From Chloroflexota bacterium (GTDB lineage Bacteria > Chloroflexota > Dehalococcoidia > JABGRK01), in assembly GCA_030665485.1 (NCBI GenBank), contig DAOUZV010000001.1:1-29907 (forward strand): a stretch of 29,907 nucleotides of DNA. Reading direction: 5' to 3'. Shown here piece after piece: positions 7,324-7,436 of this stretch (positions are counted from its first letter, which is position 1; every line of letters begins with the position of its first letter). A program made the position numbers and the translations under genes. The notes under the pieces are model-generated. The model saw only the letters and a program-made list of their open reading frames with translations, had not been told where the DNA came from and searched no databases.

Positions 7324-7436
7324 ATGGGATTAACCGTGCCCAGTTAAGATATGTATCTCCCTCACAGGGTGGAATTAGGAGTGATACTTCTGTATACTGT
7401 GAGGGAGTTGTCTTTGTATTGAAGGAGATTTGTATG
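7324..7436 (+). promoter_or_regulatory. Structured ahcY leader, candidate cis-regulatory RNA (attenuator or anti-SD switch)
   Basis: Perfect 11-bp inverted repeat CTCCCTCACAG (7357-7367)/CTGTGAGGGAG (7397-7407) followed by a T-rich run. The same 5' strand is also complementary at 8/9 nt to the SD region TGAAGGAGA (7420-7428). Confidence 0.5.

Follow-up and report, generated by a model that had tools for sequence, protein, structure and literature searches.

The hairpin that lies between a small ORF and ahcY in this Chloroflexota genome is best explained, with a probability that we put at about 0.5, as an intrinsic terminator that ends the apt-mtnA-mtnP-mesB-small ORF unit and has the promoter of ahcY-metK nested inside it. 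The locus would be the junction of two tandem operons, at which two ordinary signals overlap. RNA of the upstream unit, transcribed from about 3457–3486, would end at a Rho-independent terminator formed by the hairpin 7357–7407 and its U-rich tail, and the interior of the same hairpin would serve as a sigma-70 promoter for ahcY-metK, with a weak -35 at 7370–7375, a 17-nt spacer, and a -10 at 7393–7398. The ahcY mRNAs would begin within the 3′ arm, at about 7404–7406, and would not carry the 5′ arm; because this arm is missing, they would neither terminate nor have their Shine–Dalgarno (SD) sequence sequestered. The 3′ arm would also act as promoter-proximal DNA and the 5′ arm would have to remain complementary to it, which would account for the conservation of both arms in sequence as well as in pairing. 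Finally, a small hairpin at 7326–7361, whose letters UCCC also form part of the base of the terminator stem, may tune the read-through into ahcY.

We infer termination and initiation at these sites from the structures, their covariation, the 17-nt spacing, and the promoter and terminator habits of the genome. If the nested arrangement is real, it would insulate two related operons, one for methionine/MTA salvage and one for the SAM cycle, in a compact space of about 165 nt.

Gene context and orthologous leaders

The window (the whole stretch of DNA that was analysed, 29,907 nt, contig C105) belongs to a genome that is 90.6% complete, with a size of 1.25 Mb. The upstream unit consists of apt, mtnA, mtnP, a MesB/core-MetE-like gene, and a small ORF, in this order and on the same strand (identities from Pfam and NCBIfam), and the downstream unit of ahcY, metK, a nucleotidyl transferase gene, a phosphohexomutase gene, and a PGI-like gene. 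The hairpin occupies the sole sizeable gap (165 nt) of this long co-directional array of SAM-cycle and salvage genes, beginning 89 nt past the stop codon of the co-directional small ORF, and no regulator gene was found near it among the neighbours annotated with Pfam and NCBIfam. The transcripts that would meet the hairpin likely come from the promoter predicted ahead of the upstream unit (Table 1). All the sequences named in a preliminary description of this DNA (the arms, the inner pairing, the tail, the SD pairing, TTAAC/GTTAA, GGGA, UCCC, and TATACT) were present at their positions; only the start codon of ahcY had to be corrected, to the ATG at 7434–7436.

Table 1. Positions of the features discussed, numbered from the first letter of the window
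Feature	Position	Strand	Basis or remark
Likely promoter of the upstream unit, TGGACA-18-TATAAT	3457–3486	+	predicted; consensus scan, 11/12 matches
Small ORF, 79 aa, Ala/Pro/Lys-rich, final gene of the upstream unit	7029–7268	+	ORF list
Weak upstream hairpin	7326–7361	+	helix 1, GGGA 7326–7329/UCCC 7358–7361; helix 2, 7335–7338/7350–7353
Hairpin 5′ arm CTCCCTCACAG, CU-rich, anti-SD-like	7357–7367	+	
-35-like hexamer TGGAAT, in the conserved block GG(G/C)T(G/A)GAA	7370–7375	+	
17-nt spacer, fixed length, variable sequence, pairing in differing registers	7376–7392	+	alignment, folds
Invariant TGTATACT, including -10-like TATACT (7393–7398)	7391–7398	+	
Hairpin 3′ arm CTGTGAGGGAG	7397–7407	+	
T-rich tail TTGTCTTTGTATT	7408–7420	+	T in 6 of the first 8 letters
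Shine–Dalgarno sequence of ahcY, GAAGGAGA	7421–7428	+	GGAG before the ATG kept in 8/8 leaders
ahcY, S-adenosylhomocysteine hydrolase	7434–8693	+	Pfam AdoHcyase, AdoHcyase_NAD
metK, SAM synthetase	8712–9929	+	Pfam
Canonical terminator closing the ahcY-metK unit	13642–13663		terminator scan

Several observations concern the upstream unit itself. Ahead of apt, a near-perfect palindrome, TATATGAC-N4-GTCATATA (3433–3452), lies between back-to-back promoter-like hexamers; no sequence resembling it was found in the ahcY leader. The 345-aa protein encoded at 5976–7013 (+) showed a weak NCBIfam match to methionine synthase (PRK00957, E = 3.7e-7) and no match in Pfam, and its sequence fits the MesB/core-MetE family of Dehalococcoides (PMC7005905, PMC7857596); a metagenome scan yielded 441 relatives of it. 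The product of the small ORF, which belongs to no family in Pfam or NCBIfam, is amphipathic at its N-terminus (MGFFKGLIDFITGRKKEE), rich in Ala/Pro/Glu in the middle, and rich in Lys in its tail, and RNA libraries from three studies contain near-identical contigs across this ORF. Every relative has a gene of 72–95 aa in the corresponding place, after the MesB-like gene and before ahcY.

GTDB lists a single other species in this family. Orthologous leaders were gathered by a metagenome search with the MesB-like protein together with contigs encoding AhcY 87–97% identical, which gave eight distinct leaders of the same Chloroflexi lineage with a shared gene order. These sequences are well diverged at the fourfold-degenerate sites of ahcY, where pairs differ at 22–57% of positions and only 16% of the sites are invariant across the seven sequences with full-length ahcY, so that invariance in the spacer is informative.

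The probable terminator hairpin and the promoter-like blocks inside it

The two arms, 7357–7367 and 7397–7407, form 11 perfect pairs, 7 of them G-C, and enclose an inner pairing, AGGAGT/ACTTCT, at 7377–7391. Folding of the 55-nt hairpin gave -25.7 kcal/mol against -13.6 ± 2.7 for shuffled sequences (z = -4.4), and the orthologous hairpins reach -21 to -28 kcal/mol in all eight leaders, with differing pairing registers in their interiors. The outer stem is kept in 8/8 leaders, with 97.7% of cells paired, and compensatory changes affect three pairs in two lineages (C-G to U-A in leader L033 and two pairs in L003). This level of pairing and covariation was reached by only 2 of 500 shuffles, and registers slid along the same alignment pair at 36–68%. 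The tail directly after the stem is T-rich in every leader although its sequence differs (TTGTCTTTG, TTCTATTTA, TTGTTTTTA, TTGTTTTTT, and TGCTTTTTG), with six to eight T among the first nine letters past the stem; the tract is interrupted in most of them and is best in L033 and L003.

An 11-bp stem followed immediately by a U-rich tract and showing compensatory changes is what is found in Rho-independent terminators, and this genome has similar long hairpins, as 40–55-nt hairpins with T runs are common in its intergenic DNA. Two features differ from that class. The interior is 29 nt long rather than the short apical loop (3–8 nt) expected of an intrinsic terminator, though it is further paired, leaving loops of 3–10 nt in registers that vary by sequence, and the arms and two interior blocks are conserved far beyond the needs of termination. 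The standard scan for terminators makes no call here. We nevertheless consider it highly probable that the hairpin is an intrinsic terminator for RNA arriving from upstream, given the conserved pairing, the stable folds in all eight leaders, the T-rich tail, the similar hairpins of the genome, and the covariance-model search. The terminator-like hairpin of the preliminary description is, then, a real and conserved structure, and its alternative of a plain terminator for the upstream operon is largely borne out.

The same description had proposed a set of mutually exclusive pairings, of which one involved the SD sequence. The letters at 7356–7364 (TCTCCCTCA) do pair at 8 of 9 positions with 7420–7428 (TGAAGGAGA), but this is the generic complementarity of CUCC and GGAG at an unconserved distance, the gap from hairpin to SD varying from 13 to about 50 nt among the leaders because of insertions, and the ahcY mRNA would lack the 5′ arm if it starts at the nested promoter; SD sequestration by this arm was rejected on these grounds. 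The third fold of that set, in which GGGA captures UCCC, fared better and is plausible in view of its compensatory changes, as described below. In leaders L121 (525–578) and L122 (1450–1503), an insertion of about 25–30 nt separates the start codon from the hairpin tail, the former SD site survives as a decayed copy (AAGGAAT and AAGTAAT, respectively), and a new GGAG is found further downstream.

The strongest conservation of the whole spacer between the two units is located within the hairpin, in TGTATACT and GGNTGGAAT, rather than in the stems. TGTATACT, with eight columns, is the longest invariant run of the intergenic alignment, against an invariance of 16% at neutral sites, and the TATACT within it matches the -10 consensus at five of six positions, including A at position 2 and T at position 6, in all eight leaders. 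TGGAAT is kept in seven of them (L003 has TAGAAG), and the distance between both hexamers is exactly 17 nt in 8/8, with about half of the letters of this stretch differing. TATAAT and TTGACA are the hexamers most enriched upstream of the genes of this genome, where TATACT is also enriched 2.4-fold. Scored with matrices built from the genome's own promoters, TGGAAT-17-TATACT obtained a combined 7–9 bits in 8/8 leaders (the median best score of upstream regions in the genome is 8.2 bits), and it is the sole sigma-70-type candidate whose position is conserved across all eight; no position-conserved promoter was detected upstream of the hairpin or past the T tract. In four of the leaders, just 13–15 nt separate the hairpin from the SD, so that any ahcY-specific promoter must overlap the hairpin. 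In L121 and L122, the stem pair G7367–C7397 is broken by a change on its 5′ side, with the C of TATACT retained. From the usual distance of 6–8 nt after the -10, the start of ahcY transcription is predicted at about 7404–7406, and the 3′ arm (7397–7407) would contain the discriminator in addition to this start.

Other data argue against the nested promoter. Its -35 is poor, as TGGAAT matches TTGACA at three of six positions, reaches about 1 bit with a -35 matrix built from this genome, and has a G at position 2 that is present in only 3% of the genome's -35 hexamers; an equal or better -35 accompanies 38% of upstream and 12.5% of coding -10 anchors. The TGn of an extended -10, found in 30% of good promoters of this genome, is absent at TATACT, a generic scan for promoters gives no call here, and the geometry of the site is unlike the published coupled one. 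A -10 alone would not require the C of TATACT and the TG before it to be invariant, as they are. Nor do a terminator and a promoter alone explain why blocks upstream of the hairpin are conserved or why three lineages show the covariation described in the next section. A sigma-54 or ECF-type reading of GGAAT was discarded upon inspection of the alignment, as the downstream partners that it requires are unconserved.

Overlap between terminators and the promoters of the next unit has been reported as widespread, especially between tandem related genes (Fletcher, Forrest, ... Grainger 2026; bioRxiv 10.64898/2026.08.19.745784). In those promoter-coupled terminators, the -10 follows the T tract and transcription starts about 10 bp past the termination site (10.64898/2026.08.19.745784). 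The locus described here resembles them in the DNA shared between tandem related genes, in a stem-loop that overlaps the -35 region, and in a shortened spacer, but the hairpin itself contains both hexamers, and transcription is predicted to start (about 7405) ahead of the predicted termination (about 7415). A -10-like hexamer past the T tract is present only in L117, L121, and L122, so the published geometry is not conserved across the eight leaders, and in L117 the start predicted from this hexamer would land within the SD. If real, the nested arrangement would extend the recently proposed coupling of promoters and terminators to a new geometry and to an uncultured, small-genome marine lineage of Chloroflexi. 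Elsewhere in the genome (contig C110, about 2355–2416), a long terminator hairpin is followed by TTTTTATAAT, with a -10 directly after the T tract, so the published geometry may also occur in this organism.

The upstream hairpin and the possibility of a conditional terminator

The second structure of the leader, the weak hairpin at 7326–7361, was derived with RNAalifold after removing the 3′ arm, with a consensus energy of -3.5 kcal/mol. Its closing strand, UCCC 7358–7361, is also part of the 5′ arm of the terminator, and the two folds are mutually exclusive. Pairing is kept in 93.8% of cells over the eight sequences, three pairs are changed on both sides (in L033, L118, and L121), and the C-to-U change of L033 in the shared strand is compensated twice, once by the 3′ arm and once by the GGGA block further upstream. 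All eight sequences have the closing helix in their minimum free energy fold. This level of covariation was reached by 5–11 of 500 shuffles, with the pairs counted on the same alignment that yielded the structure and on only eight related sequences. The hairpin is no better than shuffled sequences in its energy, at -5 to -11 kcal/mol (z from +0.5 to -2.1). The pairing TTAAC/GTTAA is present at 7330–7347, and an H-type pseudoknot at 7330–7353, in which UUAAC/GUUAA would cross 7335–7338/7350–7353, was rejected by inspection of its loop lengths (L1 = 0, L3 = 2).

The covariation of the upstream hairpin is suggestive of a choice between terminator and antiterminator, and it indicates no ligand. 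A conditional terminator, whether it is an attenuator or a new riboswitch, SAH/SAM-responsive or protein-dependent, would make use of such a choice: stabilised by an effector (SAH, SAM, a related metabolite, or a protein), the fold 7326–7361 would hold UCCC off the base of the stem and permit read-through into ahcY-metK, and without the effector the far stronger terminator would form. This would be an ON switch, with the logic of the known SAH riboswitch, and it could coexist with the nested promoter. We regard it as a possible but unlikely account of the locus. It would make sense of the mutually exclusive folds with their common strand, of the compensation in three lineages, including a change that matches both partners, and of the closing helix recovered in every leader; the conservation of the arms in sequence, besides their pairing, is also in its favour. 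SAH and SAM switches are classically found in this gene context, and the genome yielded no SAM-I or SAH riboswitch. Nor, to our knowledge, is any SAM-cycle regulator known in these organisms.

The comparison with known RNA families speaks against it. At gathering thresholds the window matched no Rfam family, and the region 7200–7500 gave only spurious eukaryotic matches when E values up to 10 were admitted. The SAH riboswitch model (RF01057, gathering threshold 37 bits) matched neither in the window nor, at E up to 10, in 7200–7500; the search of the genome with this model was also negative, a weak result since the control genomes gave no match either. SAM-I (RF00162) was absent from the genome in a search in which control genomes gave matches, and the SAM-II, -III, -IV, -V, -VI, and SAM/SAH models of Rfam 15 had no credible match at the locus. 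These searches agree with the preliminary description, which could not match the leader to a SAM-I, II, III, or SAH consensus, and the Rfam scan that had been proposed as a check yielded no family. The leader shares with the SAH riboswitch (RF01057) and the SAM classes (RF00162 and others) its ahcY/metK context, a competing structure that precedes a terminator hairpin, and an ON-switch logic that would be biologically sensible here. Unlike them, it matches no Rfam sequence or structure and shows no multi-helix aptamer; the candidate aptamer has about 36 nt, with two 4-bp helices and eight wobble-rich pairs, and it competes, with the energies given above, against a terminator of -21 to -28 kcal/mol.

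Neither was a conserved promoter found between the small ORF and the hairpin, so that a switch would sit about 4 kb into the operon. Moreover, a riboswitch expression platform leaves the invariant TGTATACT and the fixed 17-nt spacing in the loop unexplained. The preliminary description had favoured a SAM/SAH-responsive RNA; nothing in the present data indicates ligand sensing. The aptamer is no more stable than shuffles, and no conserved promoter precedes it. The strongest conservation, that of TGGAAT-N17-TATACT inside the terminator, fits the -10 at 7393–7398 named among the alternatives of the same description better than it fits a riboswitch expression platform. For the search of riboswitches in general, this is a caution: conserved letters in a covarying hairpin ahead of riboswitch-type genes can be promoter elements and not a ligand pocket.

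Compared with classical attenuators, the leader likewise has two mutually exclusive hairpins with one common strand, and the terminator as the default fold, but neither a leader peptide nor a T-box specifier nor a site known to bind an RNA-binding protein could be identified, and the antiterminator is much weaker than the terminator. It is distinctly unlikely, in our judgement, that the 36-nt hairpin 7326–7361 is the sensor of a very small antitermination switch, SAH/SAM-responsive or protein-dependent. Such a sensor could act on read-through transcripts beside a constitutive nested promoter. If true, ahcY-metK would be released from the terminator as methylation by-products accumulate, in a lineage without known SAM/SAH riboswitches, and a minimal switch of this kind would matter more than the nested arrangement.

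Remaining readings and distribution of the element

The hairpin could also be a plain terminator and nothing else, with ahcY-metK lacking a promoter of their own and fed by leaky read-through from the upstream promoter, and with the conserved blocks of the loop serving another purpose, for instance as a protein-binding site on RNA or DNA. This reading, which we find quite improbable, shares all the evidence for the terminator with the nested promoter and gains from the weak -35, and in Dehalococcoides mccartyi metK, ahcY, and core-MetE have been described in one operon (PMC7005905). However, it leaves without function the strongest conservation signal of the spacer, that is, TGTATACT at its fixed distance from TGGAAT, and it would make housekeeping genes wholly dependent on leakage through a terminator of -25 kcal/mol.

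A DNA operator, in which the arms would be the half-sites of a regulator that represses or activates the ahcY promoter, with one arm immediately before the -35 and the second spanning the start site, is very improbable in spite of the near-invariant arms flanking a promoter candidate and of documented terminator palindromes that double as transcription-factor sites (LexA at yobI/ruvA): 40 bp separate the centres of the half-sites, much more than a simple dimer could span, the changes in the arms are strictly complementary (three pairs in two lineages), a signature of base pairing and not of protein half-sites, there is no regulator gene nearby, and the motif, being unique in the genome, has no regulon. 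The preliminary description had listed an operator among its alternatives.

Both the pattern search and the covariance model found the hairpin as a single copy in the 1.25-Mb genome. A dispersed repeat is ruled out by this single copy; the other occurrences of the arm sequences are all coding. In 150 genomes of the class, the covariance model of the element recovered nothing besides the congener and a plain terminator located behind a stop codon, and a pattern scan of species-representative genomes gave the congener and chance matches only. The alignment of ahcY leaders from Dehalococcoidia that had been proposed as a check upheld, on eight leaders, the covariation of the terminator stem and, to a lesser degree, that of the upstream hairpin; the distant leaders of the class look unrelated, both those of 57 other Dehalococcoidia-class genomes and those of metagenome loci with more distant MesB-like genes.

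Four metatranscriptome runs (three studies) were compared with the region 6300–8700. Near-identical assembled contigs were found only at 6858–7303, with differing ends; they cover the last part of the mesB-like gene together with the small ORF, not the hairpin, and the pieces that fall on ahcY are short conserved fragments from other organisms. Finally, and bearing no relation to the hairpin studied here, the ahcY leaders of two distant metagenome contigs (L044, about 5650–5760, and L082, about 5650–5765) contain tandem AACTCGC-like heptamers in five to eight copies.
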